Below are positions 1,010-7,093 of a stretch of DNA of 45,000 nucleotides, one piece after another. A program made the position numbers and the translations under genes. The stretch's first letter is position 1. The number at the start of each line of letters is the position of its first letter. Location of the stretch: assembly GCA_016867035.1 (NCBI GenBank), contig VGKO01000003.1, positions 1 to 45,000 of the forward strand, given 5' to 3'. This stretch comes from Candidatus Pacearchaeota archaeon (lineage in GTDB: Archaea > Nanobdellota > Nanobdellia > Pacearchaeales > GW2011-AR1). The notes beneath the pieces are model-generated. The model did not search any database and was not told the origin of the DNA. It worked only from the letters and a program-made list of their open reading frames with translations.

Positions 1010-1981
1010 ATGAAAGCCAATAAAATATTGGGTTCGTTTGTAGCAATCTTAGTTGCTTTATTTGCAATTAATTTGGCTGTTGCAGGAACATTGAACGTAA
1101 ATGTTCAAGATACTGCTTTAAACGACATCGAATTAGGAACTAGCTCAACAACTGTTGTAGCAGGATATCCTAGTGAAACCATTCCAGTAGTAATTAAGTT
1201 CTTAGCAAAAGAAGATTTGAAAGACTTAAAACTTAAGGTTTGGATTGACGGCTATAAGAATGATATAAGTGCAACTACAGCAAGATTTAATGTTGTTAAT
1301 GGAAGCACCTACATCAAGAGATTGTCTTTAACATTACCAAATGTTAATGATATGGACGATCTTGACGAAAAACTTACATTATATGTAAGAATAGCTGACA
1401 AAAACGATGAAGTTGAAACAAGCTATAAGATTAATATGCAAAGAGAATCTTATTCTCATGAGGTACTAGCTGTAGAAGCTCCATCAAAAGCTGCTGCTGG
1501 CGAAGTTATTGCTTTAGACGTTGTTCTAAAGAATATCGGTACTTATGAATTAGAAGATTCTTTTGTTACTGCAACAATCCCTGAACTAGGAGTTCAAAGA
1601 AGAGTATACTTCGGAGACTTAGCTAGCAGAGACAATTGTAGTGATAATTGCGACTCAGAAGATGCAAGAGAAAGAAGAATATTCATGGTTATACCATCTG
1701 ATGCAAAATCAGGTGACTATACATTAGAAGTTAAAGCTTCTAACTATGACTCTTCTGCAACAGTAAGAAAAGTTATCTCAATAACTGGTTCTGCTGCTGC
1801 CAACAACTCTAGCACTATAGATACAGGTAAAGACAAAGACAACAAGATACCAACATCAGTCATTGTATTGACAGTTGTATTAGTAATTGTATTTGTAGTT
1901 TTACTTATTGTGCTTATAGTATTGCTTACAAAGAAACCTTCTGAAAAATCTGAAGACTTCGGAGAAACAAGCTACTATTAA
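1010..1981 (+). CDS. Secreted, C-terminally anchored Ig-like/S-layer-type surface protein
   Basis: Signal peptide, beta-rich CARDB-like repeats (VVLKNIG), Ser/Thr linker, long C-terminal TM helix and short tail EDFGETSYY. Confidence 0.7.
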   Translation: MKANKILGSFVAILVALFAINLAVAGTLNVNVQDTALNDIELGTSSTTVVAGYPSETIPVVIKFLAKEDLKDLKLKVWIDGYKNDISATTARFNVVNGSTYIKRLSLTLPNVNDMDDLDEKLTLYVRIADKNDEVETSYKINMQRESYSHEVLAVEAPSKAAAGEVIALDVVLKNIGTYELEDSFVTATIPELGVQRRVYFGDLASRDNCSDNCDSEDARERRIFMVIPSDAKSGDYTLEVKASNYDSSATVRKVISITGSAAANNSSTIDTGKDKDNKIPTSVIVLTVVLVIVFVVLLIVLIVLLTKKPSEKSEDFGETSYY

Positions 1982-2349: not shown

Positions 2350-5211
2350 TTAAACCTCCAAGCTAACTACTTTGCTAATTTTTTCTTGCATGCTAACTCC
2401 ATAAATAACAGGACTTTCGGTTATGAGCGAGTCGTTGTGAGTTATTATGATATATTGTCCTTTGTTCATGTAGCGTTTGAGTAGAGCCGCAAGTCTTTCG
2501 CTATTTCTTCTATCTAAAGCAGCATCTATTTCATCAAAAATATAAAAGGGATAGGGTTTGTATTCTTGAATTGCAAAAATTAAGGATAAGGAGATTAAAC
2601 TTTGTTCTCCTCCTGATAAAGAATGAGTATCAAAATACTTTCCTTTTCCAACCTTAATGAGCATTTCTACTCCTGCTTTAAAGATATCTTCTTTATCTAC
2701 AGGCTCAAGAGTTGCTGTTCCTTTTGTGCTTAGTTGTGAGAAGTTTCTTGAGAATAATTTGTTTAATTCTTCTAGAGTTTGTAAAAATACCTTTTTCTTC
2801 TTTTTATCAATATCCTCAATTACCTTTAGTATCTCGAGTTTTTCTTCTTGTATTTTATTTACTTTTTCTTGAACTTTATCATACTCAATTTTAACATTTT
2901 CATAGACTTCTAGGGCCTTGAGGTTAACAGTACCTATTCTTGCAATAGTATTTTGTAATTCTTCTATTCTTTTTCTTAATTCATCGATACTTGCGCGCAT
3001 TACTCGCGTTTCACCATAACTTTTAGCTTCTAACTCAAAGGTTTCACGCTGAGCATTTAACTGAGCTCGCTCAATTTTTGAATTATTAATTCTTTCTTCA
3101 GCCGCATGCTTATCATTTTGTTTATGCATTAAATCTCTTTCGAAAAAATGCACTCTCTCTTGTAGTTTGTTTTTCTCTTCTAAAGCTTTGCGGTACTTGT
3201 CTTTTAATAATTGATCTTGGTCGGATTTTTCTTCTAGCAAGGTTTGTTTTTCTTCTACAAGTTTAGAGACTTCTTCTAAAGACTGACTTATTTCTTCAAA
3301 CTCCCTTGCTATTTCCTTAAGAATATTTTTATTTCTTTCAACTCCTCTTTGCTTTAGTGTAACTTCTGTTCCAACGTGAGATTCTTCATGCCTTTGTAAT
3401 TCTTGTACCTCAAGTCTTAGATTATCATAATTTGTTTCACTTGTTTTCAAACTAGAAACTTCATCTTCCATTTTATCTTTCTTTTTTTCTAAATCTTGAG
3501 CTTCTTTTTGTAAAATCTTTAGTTCTTCTGTGAATTTTCTCAAAAGCTCTTTTTTCTCGTTAATTAAATCCAATCTCAATAAGTCTTGGCTTCTTTGTTT
3601 AATTTCATTTTCTATTTTAAATATTATTTCAGACTGTCTTTCGTTTAATTCATGAAGTTGTTTAATGCTTTTTTCGGAACTTGAGATTTTATTCTCGCTA
3701 TCTTCAACTAGCTTCTTGGCCCCTGTAATAACATGGTTAATGTGGTCTTGGGTTATTTTTGTTTTACATAAAGGGCAGATATCAAGTTGAGATACCTGAC
3801 TCTGAATTTTCTTTTGATTTTCAATTTCTTTCTCACAAATAGCAATTGTTTTTTCACAATCGTTGCGTTTTTTTGTGTTTTCCGTTAATTCTAATCTAGA
3901 CTTTTCAAGGTTTGTTTTTAAAATTACTATTTTTTCTTTATGAACTTCTGCAGAATCTTTAATAGATATTTCAGATTCCATTTGTTGAATCTTACCATAG
4001 GTATTTTCATAATCATTCTTGATTCTTTGTATCTGCTTTTGTTTTTCATCTATCCTTGAAACTAAATAGCCTAATTGAGATTTTAAGATATAGAGCTTGC
4101 GCCTTTGCTCATCCATTTGGTCGAGTTGTTGCTTCTTCAGATCAAGGTCTTTTTTAACACTCTTGCCTTTGGATTTTGATAATTCTAGTATTTCATGTTC
4201 TGCTGTTTGAATCATTATACCCAACTCGGATTTTCTCTTTTCCATTTCACTAATTTTATTTTCAAAATCGTTTTTCTTAAAATTTAATCCGGCAAGGTCT
4301 GCCCGCAAATCTGCTATCTCGCGATTAATTTGATCTTGTTCTAAACCCGAACTCTTCTGAACATTAGAGGATATATCATTTATCTTTTGATTTAAAATAG
4401 CAATTTCTTGCTCTGTTTTTTCTATAACTTCGCGGATTTTTCTGATAGAGTTTTCTTCTCTCTCTATGCTCTTATTAATTTCTTCAAGTGCTTCATTTTT
4501 TTCAGATAATTGCTTATTAGCAATAGAGGCTTTACAGACAACAACTTCTTCTTGAAGTTTTTTGAATTGAAGTGCTTGGCGACGCTCATCCTCTAGGTTT
4601 TTAAGATAGGCTGTTCTTTCTCGCAGGATTGCATTAGCTTCTTTTAGCCTTTCATCGGTTTTCTCTAGTTCAGCTAAAGACTTCTGTTTTCTCATTTCAT
4701 AAACCCCTATACCTGCAACTTCCTCAATAACCTCACGTCTTTGGTCTGGCGGCATTTTAACAAAACTATCTATTTCCCCCTGTAAAACAATATTAAATCC
4801 ATTAGGATCAATTCCTGCTTGAACTAATAACTCTAGAATTTCCTGGCGAGTTTTAACTTCATCATTAATTTTGTATACTCCTTGGCCGTTTTTTCTGAGA
4901 ACTCTTTCAATTACAACTTCCTCGTTGCTTAAAGAAAAACCCTTATCAGTATTATCAAATACTAGTTTGACCATTGCTTCATGAGCTGGCTTGTATTTCT
5001 CTGTTCCTGCAAATATTAAATTAGATAACTTTTTTGCACGCATGCTTTTAGAGCCAAGTCTTCCAAGCACAAAGCAGATTGCATCAGTAACATTGGACTT
5101 TCCAGAACCATTTGGGCCCACAATTACATTCATTGTATTCTTGAAAGGAATTCGCGTTTCACGAGCAAAACTCTTGAAACCATGTATCACCAACTCTTTT
5201 ATGAAGGGCAT
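2350..5211 (-). CDS. smc: SMC chromosome segregation ATPase with central CPLC zinc hook instead of a hinge
   Basis: GFKSF, Walker A GPNGSGKSN, SMRA loop, signature LSGGEQ, Walker B/D-loop FYIFDEIDAALD, coiled coils, CPLC at aa 479-482. Confidence 0.9.
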   Translation of the reverse strand: MPFIKELVIHGFKSFARETRIPFKNTMNVIVGPNGSGKSNVTDAICFVLGRLGSKSMRAKKLSNLIFAGTEKYKPAHEAMVKLVFDNTDKGFSLSNEEVVIERVLRKNGQGVYKINDEVKTRQEILELLVQAGIDPNGFNIVLQGEIDSFVKMPPDQRREVIEEVAGIGVYEMRKQKSLAELEKTDERLKEANAILRERTAYLKNLEDERRQALQFKKLQEEVVVCKASIANKQLSEKNEALEEINKSIEREENSIRKIREVIEKTEQEIAILNQKINDISSNVQKSSGLEQDQINREIADLRADLAGLNFKKNDFENKISEMEKRKSELGIMIQTAEHEILELSKSKGKSVKKDLDLKKQQLDQMDEQRRKLYILKSQLGYLVSRIDEKQKQIQRIKNDYENTYGKIQQMESEISIKDSAEVHKEKIVILKTNLEKSRLELTENTKKRNDCEKTIAICEKEIENQKKIQSQVSQLDICPLCKTKITQDHINHVITGAKKLVEDSENKISSSEKSIKQLHELNERQSEIIFKIENEIKQRSQDLLRLDLINEKKELLRKFTEELKILQKEAQDLEKKKDKMEDEVSSLKTSETNYDNLRLEVQELQRHEESHVGTEVTLKQRGVERNKNILKEIAREFEEISQSLEEVSKLVEEKQTLLEEKSDQDQLLKDKYRKALEEKNKLQERVHFFERDLMHKQNDKHAAEERINNSKIERAQLNAQRETFELEAKSYGETRVMRASIDELRKRIEELQNTIARIGTVNLKALEVYENVKIEYDKVQEKVNKIQEEKLEILKVIEDIDKKKKKVFLQTLEELNKLFSRNFSQLSTKGTATLEPVDKEDIFKAGVEMLIKVGKGKYFDTHSLSGGEQSLISLSLIFAIQEYKPYPFYIFDEIDAALDRRNSERLAALLKRYMNKGQYIIITHNDSLITESPVIYGVSMQEKISKVVSLEV

Positions 5212-5245
5212 AACAACCTAAGAGAAAGAGGATATTTAAAGATTA

Positions 5246-5970
5246 TTAAGAAACATAACGCTCTATTACTTTAAGATAAGCCTGGTTTAAACCAGCTATA
5301 TCAAAAATTACCACGCGCTTAAAACCTGCTTTTTTACAAACTCGAGATCTTTTTCTAGTAATTCTGGGAGGAGTATTTTTTCAAATCCAAAAATACCGCG
5401 ACTTATTGTTCCAAGCCCTATTGTATAATTTGTTTTGGCTTTAATTCCAAGCAAGTTTTTCCTTATTCTTTTATTAACAATACCTAGAGAAAGACTTGAA
5501 TAATACATGGGACTTTTCTCGGTTTTAATTGGATAGTCTAAACCCAGCCATCCCATTAATTTGAATTTAAAGGGATATTGTGCAGTCATTATTCTTGAAC
5601 TATTTTTTTTCATGAAATTAGAGATTAATCGTTTGTTTTTGTTGAATTTAAATAAATTTTTAAAGAAAAGCACTGGCTTTAGTAAGGGTAGTTCTAAATC
5701 CATTAAAAAAGTTCCCTTGAACCTTGAGAGTTCCTTAAATAAAACCTCGAGCTCATTTGTATCTGAAAAACCGGAAATCCAATAAGAATTTTTTAGTTTG
5801 GGCCAATAACAGCACTCTATTTTTTTATTTATTTTAATAACTTGTTTCTGAAATTTGTGAAATTCTGCTAAAGATTTCGTACCAATAAATACTCGCGATT
5901 TGAAATCTAATAGTTTAAGCTTACCCAAACTCCCTTTTTCTGGAAACTCGGCATAAAAATCAATCCTCAT
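5246..5970 (-). CDS. Hypothetical protein, possibly TIM-barrel-like, with a -1 frameshift near the 3' end
   Basis: The ORF ends at 5308 in frame 0. A -1 shift at A_AAA_AAG (5329-5335) continues as KKAGFKRVVIFDIAGLNQAYLKVIERYVS* to 5246. Confidence 0.6.
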
Positions 5971-6072
5971 AATTAAAAAAAGCCAAGCACCTATTTAAAG
6001 ATTATTAAGGCTATTAGGTTTATTTTTTTTAATGACATAAATACTTAAATAGCTATTATGGCTTGTTAATTT

Positions 6073-6327
6073 ATGTTTGGAAGAAAAAGCCTTTATGAAG
6101 AAGTTGGAAGCTCCCCACAAAGTTATGCTCCTTTAGCAGGACTTATGGCTGAATTAAAACCCATCATGGGAAATACTAGAGGGATATTCGAAGTATTTAG
6201 GAAAAGGTTTCAACAATTTGATACTAAAAGTTTAGAAAGATTTATTGCAAGATATGATGGGCAAGTTAATGTTCCAGAAGCAGTATATATGCTTCAAGCA
6301 GCTAAAGAAGTTTATGCAAAAAGATAA
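6073..6327 (+). CDS. Hypothetical protein (orphan)
   Basis: ORF with TATA-like ACTTAAAT about 25 nt upstream (leaderless arrangement). Confidence 0.6.
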   Translation: MFGRKSLYEEVGSSPQSYAPLAGLMAELKPIMGNTRGIFEVFRKRFQQFDTKSLERFIARYDGQVNVPEAVYMLQAAKEVYAKR

Positions 6328-6335
6328 AGAATATC

Positions 6336-7043
6336 CTAGAGTGTAGTTTGCTTATGTTTTACTTGCTCTTTAACTTGCTTGGCAAGTTTAGCTTCTCGGA
6401 AGGTTGCCCAGCTCTCTCGGAAAAAGCCCTTTAACTTGGGATTATCAACATATTTTTTCAGAAACTCTATTGTTGTTGGGTCGCTTGGATAACCGCTTCC
6501 AAAATCTTCGCCCACTATAGATTTTATTTTTTCTATCTCTGCATCTCTTGTAACCTTTGCTAAAATACTTGCGGCTGAAACAACAGGATAATTAAAATCA
6601 GCCTTATGCTCGCAAATAATTTTTGATGCAAGCTTTTTTTCATTAACATACTCAAGTAATTGTCTTTTCCAACCCTCTGTATTGATTGAAGGACAGTCCA
6701 AGATTATTTTTAATCCTGCTTTCTGAGCTATTGAAAGATTTTCAGTTAATTCATTAATTATACTTGCAGCAGCAAGGGCTTCAACTTGATTTAAATTCAA
6801 GCCTTGCCCGAAACCTGTATCGATTTCCTTGGGGGTTATTATCTTGAACTTAAAGTCTTTTGTTATTTTTTTTATTTCTTCAAGTATTCTTTCGCGTTGT
6901 TGTGGCGATAGAAGTTTGGAATCTTTGGCTCCTGCTAGCTTTAAATCATGCTGTTTTTCTGCAGGAATTAATACTCCTGCAAGCAACATTGGACCCATAA
7001 CAGGACCCCGGCCTGCATCGTCAATACCTATTAGGTATTCCAT
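6336..7043 (-). CDS. rnhB: Ribonuclease HII
   Basis: GIDDAGRGP, KDSKLL, HKAD, VSAASILAKVTRD, GSGYPSDP; C-terminal PIP-like KQTTL. Confidence 0.95.
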   Translation of the reverse strand: MEYLIGIDDAGRGPVMGPMLLAGVLIPAEKQHDLKLAGAKDSKLLSPQQRERILEEIKKITKDFKFKIITPKEIDTGFGQGLNLNQVEALAAASIINELTENLSIAQKAGLKIILDCPSINTEGWKRQLLEYVNEKKLASKIICEHKADFNYPVVSAASILAKVTRDAEIEKIKSIVGEDFGSGYPSDPTTIEFLKKYVDNPKLKGFFRESWATFREAKLAKQVKEQVKHKQTTL

Positions 7044-7093
7044 AATTTTTGTTAGAGAATAATCTTTATATATCTTTTACTCTTCTAGTTTAT

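Follow-up and report, generated by a model that had tools for sequence, protein, structure and literature searches.

The smc gene analysed here occupies positions 2350..5211 on the minus strand of the window, by which we mean the whole 45,000-nucleotide stretch under analysis. It is an intact open reading frame with an ATG start and no internal stop, in which 953 codons are followed by a stop codon. The N-terminal half of the ATPase head (about residues 1-167; nt 4711..5211, minus strand) was delimited by motifs in the translation and by the strands and helices of the AF2 model, which extend to about residue 167. It carries GFKSF (11-15), GPNGSGKSN (32-40) with the Walker A motif GPNGSGKS (32-39; nt 5095-5118, minus strand), DAICFVLG (43-50), SMRA (56-59) with the arginine R58, and the Q-loop residue Q144, and it is 48% identical over 162 columns to the SMC ATPase 1xex_A. 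The C-terminal half (about residues 828-953; nt 2353..2730, minus strand), recognized from its motifs, its invariant columns and Foldseek, holds the signature LSGGE (865-869; nt 2605-2619, minus strand), the stretch PYPFYIFDEIDAALD (886-900) with the Walker B and D-loop FYIFDEIDAALD (889-900; nt 2512-2547, minus strand), and the H-loop histidine H925. The Smc-type ABC head is thereby complete, from Walker A through R-loop arginine, Q-loop, LSGGE, Walker B and D-loop to H-loop, and these elements are invariant among 23 aligned sequences, including G32, G35, G37, K38, S39, R58 and Q144 in the N-terminal half.

Between the two head halves, the AF2 monomer (mean pLDDT 80.1) shows a long antiparallel intramolecular coiled coil made of two arms of about 310 residues. 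The ascending arm (about residues 168-475; nt 3787..4710, minus strand) is built from helices 168-207, 217-344, 353-414 and 421-475, with breaks at 206-218, 345-352 and 415-420, while the descending arm (about residues 488-827; nt 2731..3750, minus strand) comprises helices 488-606, 614-731, 742-759 and 770-827, with breaks at 607-613, 732-741 and 760-769. The chain reverses at residues 476-487 (nt 3751..3786, minus strand), an apex turn with a putative zinc-hook motif in which CPLC (479-482; nt 3766-3777, minus strand) is followed by K-T-K-I-T-Q-D-H. Only six cysteines (46, 226, 452, 459, 479 and 482) are found in the 953 residues. The reading frame, the length of 953 aa, the head motifs and the position of CPLC given in the initial annotation all match the translation exactly.

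First, we looked at what stands in place of the hinge. With Pfam, SMC_hinge was not detected in the protein at E<=1, and the same model gave 108.5 bits on the hinge-bearing relative P0147, which served as positive control. Nor was SMC_hinge (PF06470) detected on any contig of the genome, in an assembly that is 94.6% complete, so that the lack of a visible hinge noted from the sequence holds for both protein and genome. Hinge-type relatives are about 200 residues longer than the protein, and the NCBIfam Smc match is split on either side of the missing hinge: residues 3-468 align with positions 1-470 of SMC_prok_B, and in BLAST the colinearity with hinge-type Smc picks up again at about residues 495-502. 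Taken together, a hinge of about 180-200 residues has very probably been replaced by a short apex turn bearing a Rad50-type CPxC zinc hook, although the boundaries of the replacement are approximate since the hook region is forced by MAFFT to align with part of the hinge. MAFFT also opens gaps in the arms relative to hinge-type proteins (39 residues after position 354, 12 after 601 and 13 after 608), which we discounted as a hook-specific trait, the hinge-type relative P0153 being short there as well.

Second, we examined the apex itself. CP[LM]C was found in 120 of the 120 homologues among the matches listed (51-81% identity), displaced in the three that carry an intein. In a more diverse set (35-81% identity, with a mean column identity of 50%), all 23 sequences have C479, P480 and C482. 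With this conservation, CxxC is not a chance feature, and it is kept in every orthologue examined. The size of the protein is also strongly constrained, 93 of the 120 listed homologues measuring 953 or 954 aa and 95 of them having CP.C at position 479. Searching the PDB with the apex of the single sequence (81 aa) returned only unrelated weak matches, the best at E 0.085, so that a profile built from the 23 sequences was needed. When this 71-column profile was compared with 177,635 PDB sequences, two entries of the Pyrococcus furiosus Rad50 hook came first (1l8d_A, E 2.5e-7, 33.8 bits; 6zff_A, E 6.5e-7), with CPlCktkITkEh aligned against CPVCGRELTDEH; the human Rad50 hook 5gox reached only E 9.7. 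The profile also matched the hook segment in 18 of 18 Rad50s of the same order with 27.9-60.8 bits, and no other coiled-coil segment of these 18 proteins scored above 5.9 bits; as the E-values come from a database of 18 sequences, the weight of this comparison lies in the bit scores and in the contrast within each protein.

Pfam gave a more mixed picture. Among the 23 family members, Rad50_zn_hook matched 10 at E<=10, with 5.1e-6 as the best value, and none of the other 13. Its best match across the whole genome was nt 3700-3834 of the window, with 18 bits, below the 24.3-bit cut-off, and there was no match to this protein alone at E<=1. Hence, of the domain content that had been expected from the sequence, SMC_N was found (173 bits) and SMC_hinge was absent as foreseen, while Rad50_zn_hook did not appear when the protein was scanned by itself. 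On the strength of the family profile, the sequence data support the identification of the apex as a Rad50-like CxxC zinc hook.

We then modelled residues 410-550 in two copies with Zn. The median run scored 0.51, compared to 0.27 for the best of three controls; in the calibration of the tool, which excluded ligand, 20 of 30 solved homodimers came up to this mark, as did 1 of 23 single chains, and Rad50 hooks being already solved, the model may recall them. The three runs agreed in at least 90% of contacts, with a pLDDT of 85. In the Zn-bound dimer that the initial annotation had proposed, the CPLC turns of both copies are paired with low expected error, the predicted interface consisting of residues 479-484 of both copies and of arm-to-arm contacts at 450-462 and 542-549, and the arms run parallel in a rod-like arrangement. 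These sequence and model data suggest that the apex binds zinc and dimerizes, and that the ring may be closed through Zn. Alternatively, the CPxC could serve something other than an intermolecular hook, by stabilizing a hairpin within the monomer, forming a disulfide or contacting another partner, with dimerization left to heads and arms only. In line with this, five proteins of the same clade (P0139, P0141, P0142, P0146 and L072) manage without any apex module, having neither hook nor hinge. However, the likeness to Rad50 does not stop at CxxC but takes in the helices on either side and the T-x-E-H motif, the two CPLC turns meet in the predicted dimer, and a tetrahedral Zn site cannot be filled by the two cysteines of one chain alone. 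We therefore regard a non-hook role of the CPxC as unlikely and favour the zinc hook.

Third, we asked to which family the heads and arms belong. The NCBIfam models SMC_prok_B and SMC_prok_A gave 522.6 and 504.4 bits, short of both curated Smc cut-offs (567.35 and 729.4, respectively, for the equivalogs TIGR02168/TIGR02169). Foldseek placed condensin Smc4 (6yvu_B, 7.6e-35) and the Pyrococcus Smc head with joint (5xei, 6.1e-31) as best matches, with TM scores normalized to the target of 0.91 for the ScpA-bound Smc head 4i99_B and 0.88 for 5xns_A; Rad50 first appeared at rank 9. In a head-only tree of 104 rows, 24 hook-type proteins and the five tip-less relatives formed one clade (SH-aLRT 100), nested among hinge-type Smc of the same class and sister to 13 hinge-type proteins with a support of 83, in a quick search with SH-aLRT support only, most rows being representatives and the named ASRPs (ClsN/Sph) not among them. 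The genome's own Rad50 is set apart by a single very long branch, of about 10 changes per column, which forms the root. The ATPase head and both long arms are thus those of an ordinary Smc.

This identity bears on two further readings of the protein. It could be a member of the ASRPs (ClsN/Sph), acting as a coalescin-like factor without kleisin, inasmuch as the accessible text of PMC9389158 presents ASRPs as hook-bearing archaeal SMC-related proteins and the ASRP model NF045487 does give 111.9 bits. But this score is far under the 300-bit cut-off and the Smc scores, and the match spans residues 17-330 and so excludes the hook; moreover, head and arms are colinear with hinge-type Smc, and the genome retains ScpA and ScpB and has no other Smc that we could find. 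Membership in this family is therefore very improbable. Another possibility is a DNA-repair ATPase, a diverged paralogue of Rad50/SbcC with no more than a resemblance to Smc, and the CxxC at a coiled-coil apex, the absent hinge and weak full-length alignments (such as PRK03918 over residues 4-932, 86.6 bits) would fit; this is already contradicted, and hardly credible, as the Smc models score about six times the Rad50 models (which give 49-87 bits where the cut-offs are 700-1087), the heads fall within Smc in the tree, a long way from the Rad50 that this genome encodes, with a fold that matches Smc first, and a mre11-rad50 locus stands elsewhere in the same genome. A grouping of the heads with Rad50 was hence found neither in model scores, nor in fold, nor in the tree.

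For the partners of an ordinary Smc, we searched the remaining contigs. The genome does encode ScpA (355 aa, 54.9 bits) and ScpB (203 aa, 121.4 bits), on contigs other than that of smc, and mre11-rad50 lies on contig C19. The initial annotation was thus right that no scpA or mre11 is present in the window, and all the genes it suggested to look for were located elsewhere in the genome. Across the order, 39 of 41 genomes have ScpA, among them all 11 of high quality. Of 20 relatives, 19 have a separate, hook-bearing Rad50, whose frame runs without interruption for about 685-745 aa in 18 of them. Near smc, no mre11 or metallophosphoesterase gene was found among the open reading frames read. The upstream frame 5308-5970 (minus strand, 220 aa) was considered as a partner; neither Pfam nor a comparison with 63 related loci gave any match to it, and it was set aside as lineage-specific. 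Another SMC_N match, on contig C4, belongs to an ABC transporter and not to an SMC. By profile search, the gene is the only one of Smc type in the genome, although a second Smc is not strictly excluded because the 94.6%-complete assembly consists of 80 contigs. A role in a defence or mobile-element system (Wadjet or Lamassu type), as an accessory SMC-like ATPase and not as the chromosomal condensin, has almost nothing to recommend it: SMC-like ATPases do act in defence systems (accessible text of PMC10586767), but here the Smc-type gene is the only one of its genome and one full-length copy is found in each of the 27 genomes sampled from three families, the neighbourhood is conserved, with RNase HII close to the gene in 46 of 63 related loci, and no JetA/JetB/JetD-like or LmuA-like neighbours occur among the frames read. 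Instead, the protein would bind ScpAB and play a chromosomal role.

We also determined how widely the hook form is distributed. Full-length hook-type matches, one copy each, were found in 25 of 25 genomes of family f1 and in the single genomes of families f3 and f4, so the form is lineage-wide in the 27 sampled genomes of these three families, and it did not occur in any of the 173 genomes sampled from other families of the class. Conversely, SMC_hinge was detected in 0 of these 27 genomes and in 144 of 201 across the class. Because the hook clade is nested among hinge-bearing Smc and the hinge is the norm of the class, the hook-bearing Smc is a derived chimera and not an evolutionary intermediate between SMC and Rad50; the structural link between the two that had been proposed is therefore upheld as a secondary chimera, and falls as an intermediate. 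As for its origin, an ancestor of the order may have recombined the hook segment of a rad50 gene into smc, probably from the rad50 of its own lineage. With the apex profile, Rad50s from within the order reach as much as 60.8 bits, compared to 33.8 bits for P. furiosus Rad50.

Altogether, it is highly likely that the gene is the one housekeeping smc in a DPANN archaeon with a small genome, and that in this Smc the hinge has been swapped for a Rad50-type hook. The central reading of the initial annotation, a condensin-type Smc with a Rad50-like CxxC hook in place of the hinge, is borne out, and nothing that it had named as speaking against this was found. In the mechanism that we propose, two protomers would be joined at their arm tips by one Zn, with C479 and C482 of each as ligands, and the arms would run alongside each other in a rod. 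The heads would engage on ATP and be bridged by the kleisin ScpA with ScpB, and the resulting Smc(Zn-hook)-ScpAB ring would organize and segregate the chromosome like canonical Smc-ScpAB.

More tentatively, the apex dimerization module of Smc might be evolutionarily exchangeable and even dispensable, going from hinge to a hook taken from the lineage's own rad50, and then to loss of the hook in several sub-lineages. In the last step, the hook would have been lost together with part of the arms, leaving an Smc of about 780-800 aa with a helical tip only. Genomes with such a tip-less Smc of about 780-800 aa still retain ScpA. If true, this would constitute a natural series of hinge, then hook, then nothing, and the minimum of Smc-ScpAB would be heads and a phased arm.

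The hinge counts as a defining feature of SMC proteins; DNA binding and ring loading are attributed to it in the accessible sources, PMC12153180 among them. An archaeal order living with a hook-bearing Smc is a natural counterpart of the laboratory swaps, which also work in the reverse direction, a MukB hinge replacing the Rad50 hook in fission yeast (PMC6969161). This suggests that what Smc-ScpAB needs at its apex is stable dimerization of the arm tips and not the hinge fold. The family documents an exchange of modules between two branches of the SMC superfamily, and it offers a small, single-chain-type model for structural study of arm mechanics. It is also a warning for annotation, as hook-bearing proteins could be missed or misfiled by domain-based pipelines in which the hinge defines Smc. 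In the published literature we found no natural hook-bearing Smc, only engineered equivalents; subscription journals and supplementary files lay outside this search, so an earlier description is possible. Judged from titles and the starts of abstracts, none of the papers on SMC, hooks and Nanoarchaeota dealt with Smc architecture. No paper on a zinc hook turned up in the DPANN literature, and a 2026 preprint on Nanobdellota genomes makes no mention of SMC, hinge, hook, condensin or ScpA.

Compared to known systems, the protein is closest to the prokaryotic and archaeal Smc of Smc-ScpAB (TIGR02168/TIGR02169; 5xei, 5xns, 4i99). It shares with them the head motifs, the colinear arms of about 310 residues with joint-like and elbow-like breaks, the presence of ScpA and ScpB in the genome, the single copy and the head phylogeny, and it differs from them in having a CPxC turn of about 12 residues instead of the hinge, which leaves it about 200 residues shorter. 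With Rad50/SbcC (PF04423; 1l8d, 6zff), it has in common the apex CPxC followed by [IL]-T-x-E-H, a profile likeness over about 66 positions and a rod-like dimer with parallel arms, the latter only predicted for the archaeal Smc. The rest of the protein is not Rad50, Mre11 is not adjacent, and the lineage keeps a separate Rad50.

Two groups of natural proteins resemble it in part. The ASRPs (PMC9389158, accessible text) are likewise archaeal members of the SMC superfamily with an apex zinc hook, but they form a separate family, with a model of 593 positions that the present protein matches far below cut-off while being colinear with true Smc. A cluster of hinge-less SMC from marine Actinobacteria is also a natural Smc-family clade that has dispensed with the hinge, yet it is bacterial and, in the accessible text of Sussfeld et al. 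2025 (PMC12153180), the CXXC motif is described as absent; the tip-less relatives (P0139, P0146 and others) come closer to that case than the archaeal hook-bearing Smc does.

The same architecture, an Smc head and arms with a Rad50 hook, has otherwise been made in the laboratory. In Bacillus subtilis, Smc(Zh), whose hinge was exchanged for the zinc hook of P. furiosus Rad50, supported normal growth, and its function still depended on arm length (accessible text of Burmann et al. 2017, PMC5344682). Normal growth with Smc(Zh) indicates that the hook design can work with ScpAB. In contrast to this engineered bacterial protein, the hook-bearing Smc described here is natural and archaeal, fixed throughout its lineage, and constrained in length.

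The smc gene is an uninterrupted, ATG-initiated reading frame of 953 codons (window 2350-5211, minus strand), and the G+C content around it (about 30-33%) is the same as in the remainder of the window. In its translation we found all the head motifs quoted in the initial annotation, that is GFKSF (residues 11-15), GPNGSGKSN (32-40), DAICFVLG (43-50), SMRA (56-59), LSGGE (865-869) and PYPFYIFDEIDAALD (886-900). The CPLC that had been reported within DICPLCKTKIT also lies at the expected place, with C479 and C482 (nt 3766-3777) among a total of six cysteines.

The initial annotation described the heads as condensin-type, and profile scores, structural comparison and a head-only tree all agree with this. 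First, Pfam SMC_N matches residues 3-944 with 173 bits, and the NCBIfam models SMC_prok_B and SMC_prok_A give 522.6 and 504.4 bits, which is under their curated cut-offs (567 and 729, respectively). The best NCBIfam stretch places residues 3-468 on profile positions 1-470, thus spanning the head and the entire ascending arm. By comparison, scores stay at 49-87 bits with Rad50 models and at 111.9 bits with the archaea-specific SMC-related model (ASRP). Second, the AlphaFold2 monomer model, based on an alignment of 23 family members (mean pLDDT 80.1), places, between the two parts of a split ABC head, an ascending set of helices (residues 168-475), a short non-helical turn containing CPLC (476-487) and a descending set (488-827). 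Low-confidence stretches lie on opposite arms (206-218 and 755-768, and 345-352 and 607-614) and resemble the breaks known as joint and elbow in Smc arms. Third, Foldseek against the PDB ranked condensin Smc4 first, followed by the Pyrococcus Smc head with joint and further Smc and cohesin heads. Target-normalised TM-scores were 0.88 for 5xns_A and 0.91 for 4i99_B, an Smc head in complex with ScpA, and Rad50 first appeared at rank 9.

The hinge is missing, as proposed. No SMC_hinge match was found in the protein (Pfam, E<=1) or in the whole source genome (751 kb, 80 contigs, 94.6% complete), and the same model gives 108.5 bits on P0147, the nearest hinge-bearing relative, which served as positive control. 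At the arm tip, CP[LM]C is kept in 120/120 best homologues (51-81% identity), and in a broader alignment (23 sequences, 35-81% identity), in which the arms flanking the hook are poorly conserved, C479, P480 and C482 do not vary. The conservation expected for the CxxC is thus observed at both depths.

The expected Rad50_zn_hook match was only partly recovered: Pfam returned nothing at E<=1 on the hook-Smc sequence alone, but matched 10 of the 23 family members at E<=10 (best 5.1e-6). Likewise, the single apex sequence matched nothing meaningful in the PDB. By running A2, a 71-column apex profile built from the family alignment, against all PDB sequences, we found the P. furiosus Rad50 zinc hook as the top two matches (1l8d, E 2.5e-7; 6zff, E 6.5e-7), aligned over 66 positions that include the post-cysteine motif (CPlCktkITkEh against CPVCGRELTDEH). 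A RING finger came third (E 0.011), and the human Rad50 hook gave only E 9.7. Within the same archaeal order, A2 matched the hook segment of 18/18 Rad50 proteins (27.9-60.8 bits) and scored at most 5.9 bits on their other coiled-coil segments, which provides an internal control for coiled-coil composition. Judged from these profile matches, the hook is genuine and Rad50-like. The best A2 score on a Rad50 of the order is 60.8 bits, compared with 33.8 bits on P. furiosus Rad50, which further suggests that the lineage's own rad50 may have been the hook donor.

The initial annotation also suggested modelling a dimer with zinc, and in this model pairing at the hook was predicted. With two copies of residues 410-550 and one Zn, three runs gave a median score of 0.51 (0.51, 0.50 and 0.52) against 0.27 for the best of three controls; in calibration, the mark was reached by 20 of 30 solved homodimers and by 1 of 23 single chains. 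The runs share at least 90% of their contacts (pLDDT 85) and place the interface at residues 479-484 of both chains, with arm-to-arm contacts at 450-462 and 542-549, in a rod with parallel arms. Because Rad50 hooks are solved structures, the score may stem from resemblance to them and so not count as independent evidence. The predicted dimer supports binding, short of proof.

Neither scpA nor mre11 adjoins smc in the window, as had been noted, and we located scpA, scpB and a separate mre11-rad50 locus on other contigs. Contigs C6 and C30 carry the genes for ScpA (355 aa; 54.9 bits) and ScpB (203 aa; 121.4 bits), and ScpA occurs in 39/41 genomes of the order, including 11/11 high-quality ones. 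Elsewhere in the source genome, SMC_N matches only the rad50 of contig C19 and an ABC transporter, the latter set aside as not an SMC. On C19 (locus L010, 3656-7057), mre11 falls apart into at least three overlapping frames (3656-4099, 4042-4443 and 4439-4876) and rad50 into two (4966-5829 and 5789-7057), which reflects either decay in the source genome or assembly indels. Rad50 is present in 19/20 relatives, 18 of them with an unbroken reading frame (about 685-745 aa) carrying its own hook. Therefore, the hook-Smc is not the Rad50 of this lineage.

Around smc, the conserved neighbour is RNase HII (window 6336-7043, minus strand), found in 46/63 related loci and mostly ending just upstream of smc. 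In the window, the two are separated by a 220-aa reading frame (5308-5970, minus strand) with no Pfam match and no homologue among the 63 related loci; an 84-aa frame on the opposite strand also lies between them. Downstream of smc is a 323-aa protein (1010-1981, plus strand) that begins with a signal-like segment and ends in a membrane anchor; homologues of this protein occur in 37/63 related loci.

The best 150 matches in a representative library separate cleanly into classes. Hook-type proteins measure 946-1023 aa, give a single full-length match and carry CP.C. Most hinge-type proteins measure 1050-1200 aa, and this type combines a split match with a G..G..GG motif; a few forms are short. 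In the class sample (n=201), a hinge was found in 144 genomes, but in none of those of families f1 (0/25), f3 (0/1) and f4 (0/1), which have strong full-length matches to hook-Smc (25/25, 1/1 and 1/1) seen in 0/173 genomes elsewhere. Among 40 relatives of the order, the full-length form occurs in f1, f2, f3, f4, f9 and part of f8. Public records holding it are titled Pacearchaeota, Woesearchaeota, Nanoarchaeota or Nanoarchaeia. Four hinge-negative genomes of this sample were examined: in three of them nothing matched Smc at E<=1e-10, and the fourth had only a 99-residue Smc fragment at a contig end; family f30 has neither a hinge nor a hook-type match (0/19 genomes for each). Some lineages of the class may be without Smc altogether. 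The three genomes belong to other families of the class (G047, G050 and G061), G050 being a single contig, 98% complete.

In the head-only tree (104 rows, 334 columns, IQ-TREE quick mode), 24/24 hook-type proteins and five tip-less proteins form one clade (SH-aLRT 100), whose sister group comprises 13 hinge-type proteins (support 83) and which is nested within hinge-type diversity. The hook clade lies inside Smc, remote from the source genome's Rad50, whose branch measures about 10 changes per column. This nested position indicates that the hook-bearing state derives from a hinge-bearing Smc, a polarity that is well supported but not proven, the tree search being quick and the root lying on one very long branch. 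The tip-less forms, whose genomes keep ScpA, fall within the hook clade, which suggests secondary loss of the hook along with arm shortening. These proteins (P0139, P0141, P0142, P0146 and L072, from genomes G028, G029, G030, G035 and G040 in families f5-f7 of the order) have neither a hinge nor an arm-tip CxxC, the Pfam SMC_hinge check covering P0139 and P0146 only, and are mostly about 780-804 aa, with an open frame of 908 aa for L072.

Other Smc forms were also observed. Some hook-type proteins (P0023, P0028, P0030, P0126 and P0128) reach about 1480 aa through an intein, equipped with a LAGLIDADG endonuclease, that sits in the Walker A GPNGSGKS or right behind it; a similar appearance was noted for several hinge-type relatives (about 1660-1800 aa). 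A separate "mini" Smc clade of about 800-850 aa, including P0207, P0213, P0214, P0222, P0226 and L093, keeps the Gly-rich hinge motif on much shorter arms. Smc proteins of Spirochaetota/Treponema (L083-L089, L091, L092, L094 and L095; frames of 943-1019 aa, matched over about 920 aa) are colinear with hook-Smc at 25-28% identity, without CxxC. In L088, the one scanned, SMC_hinge gave no match at E<=0.01, and they may represent a bacterial hinge-less Smc.

Taking these observations together, the protein is very probably the Smc of a Smc(Zn-hook)-ScpAB condensin, whose proposed mechanism leans on established knowledge of Smc-ScpAB and of Rad50 hooks. A single zinc ion, held by four cysteines, would tie two chains together at their tips, the arms would zip into a rod and ATP would engage the heads. 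ScpA, with ScpB bound to it, would connect one head at its neck with the other at its cap, and the ring would act on the chromosome like canonical Smc-ScpAB. The tight size (953 or 954 aa in 93/120 homologues, hook at position 479 in 95/120) fits a tuned arm. The proposal also draws on a B. subtilis Smc in which the hook of P. furiosus Rad50 takes the place of the hinge: cells with it grow normally, and its function still depends on arm length (PMC5344682). The reverse swap, in Rad50, is likewise described as working (PMC6969161).

The initial observation is thus confirmed and its interpretation upheld, apart from one point: the suggested structural link between SMC and Rad50 holds as a chimera but not as an intermediate, the hook form being derived in the head tree. 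In the openly accessible articles searched, we found no published description of a natural hook-bearing Smc. The hinge-less SMC cluster of marine Actinobacteria lacks CXXC according to its authors (PMC12153180), unlike the conserved CP.C of hook-Smc. With regard to ASRP (ClsN/Sph), hook-Smc scores under the model cut-off. Rad50 has the hook in common with it, but differs in heads and partners. Finally, hook-Smc would work like a canonical Smc but has no hinge and stays below the equivalog cut-offs, and we therefore file it as an Smc variant rather than a plain member, a derived chimera of the Smc family.
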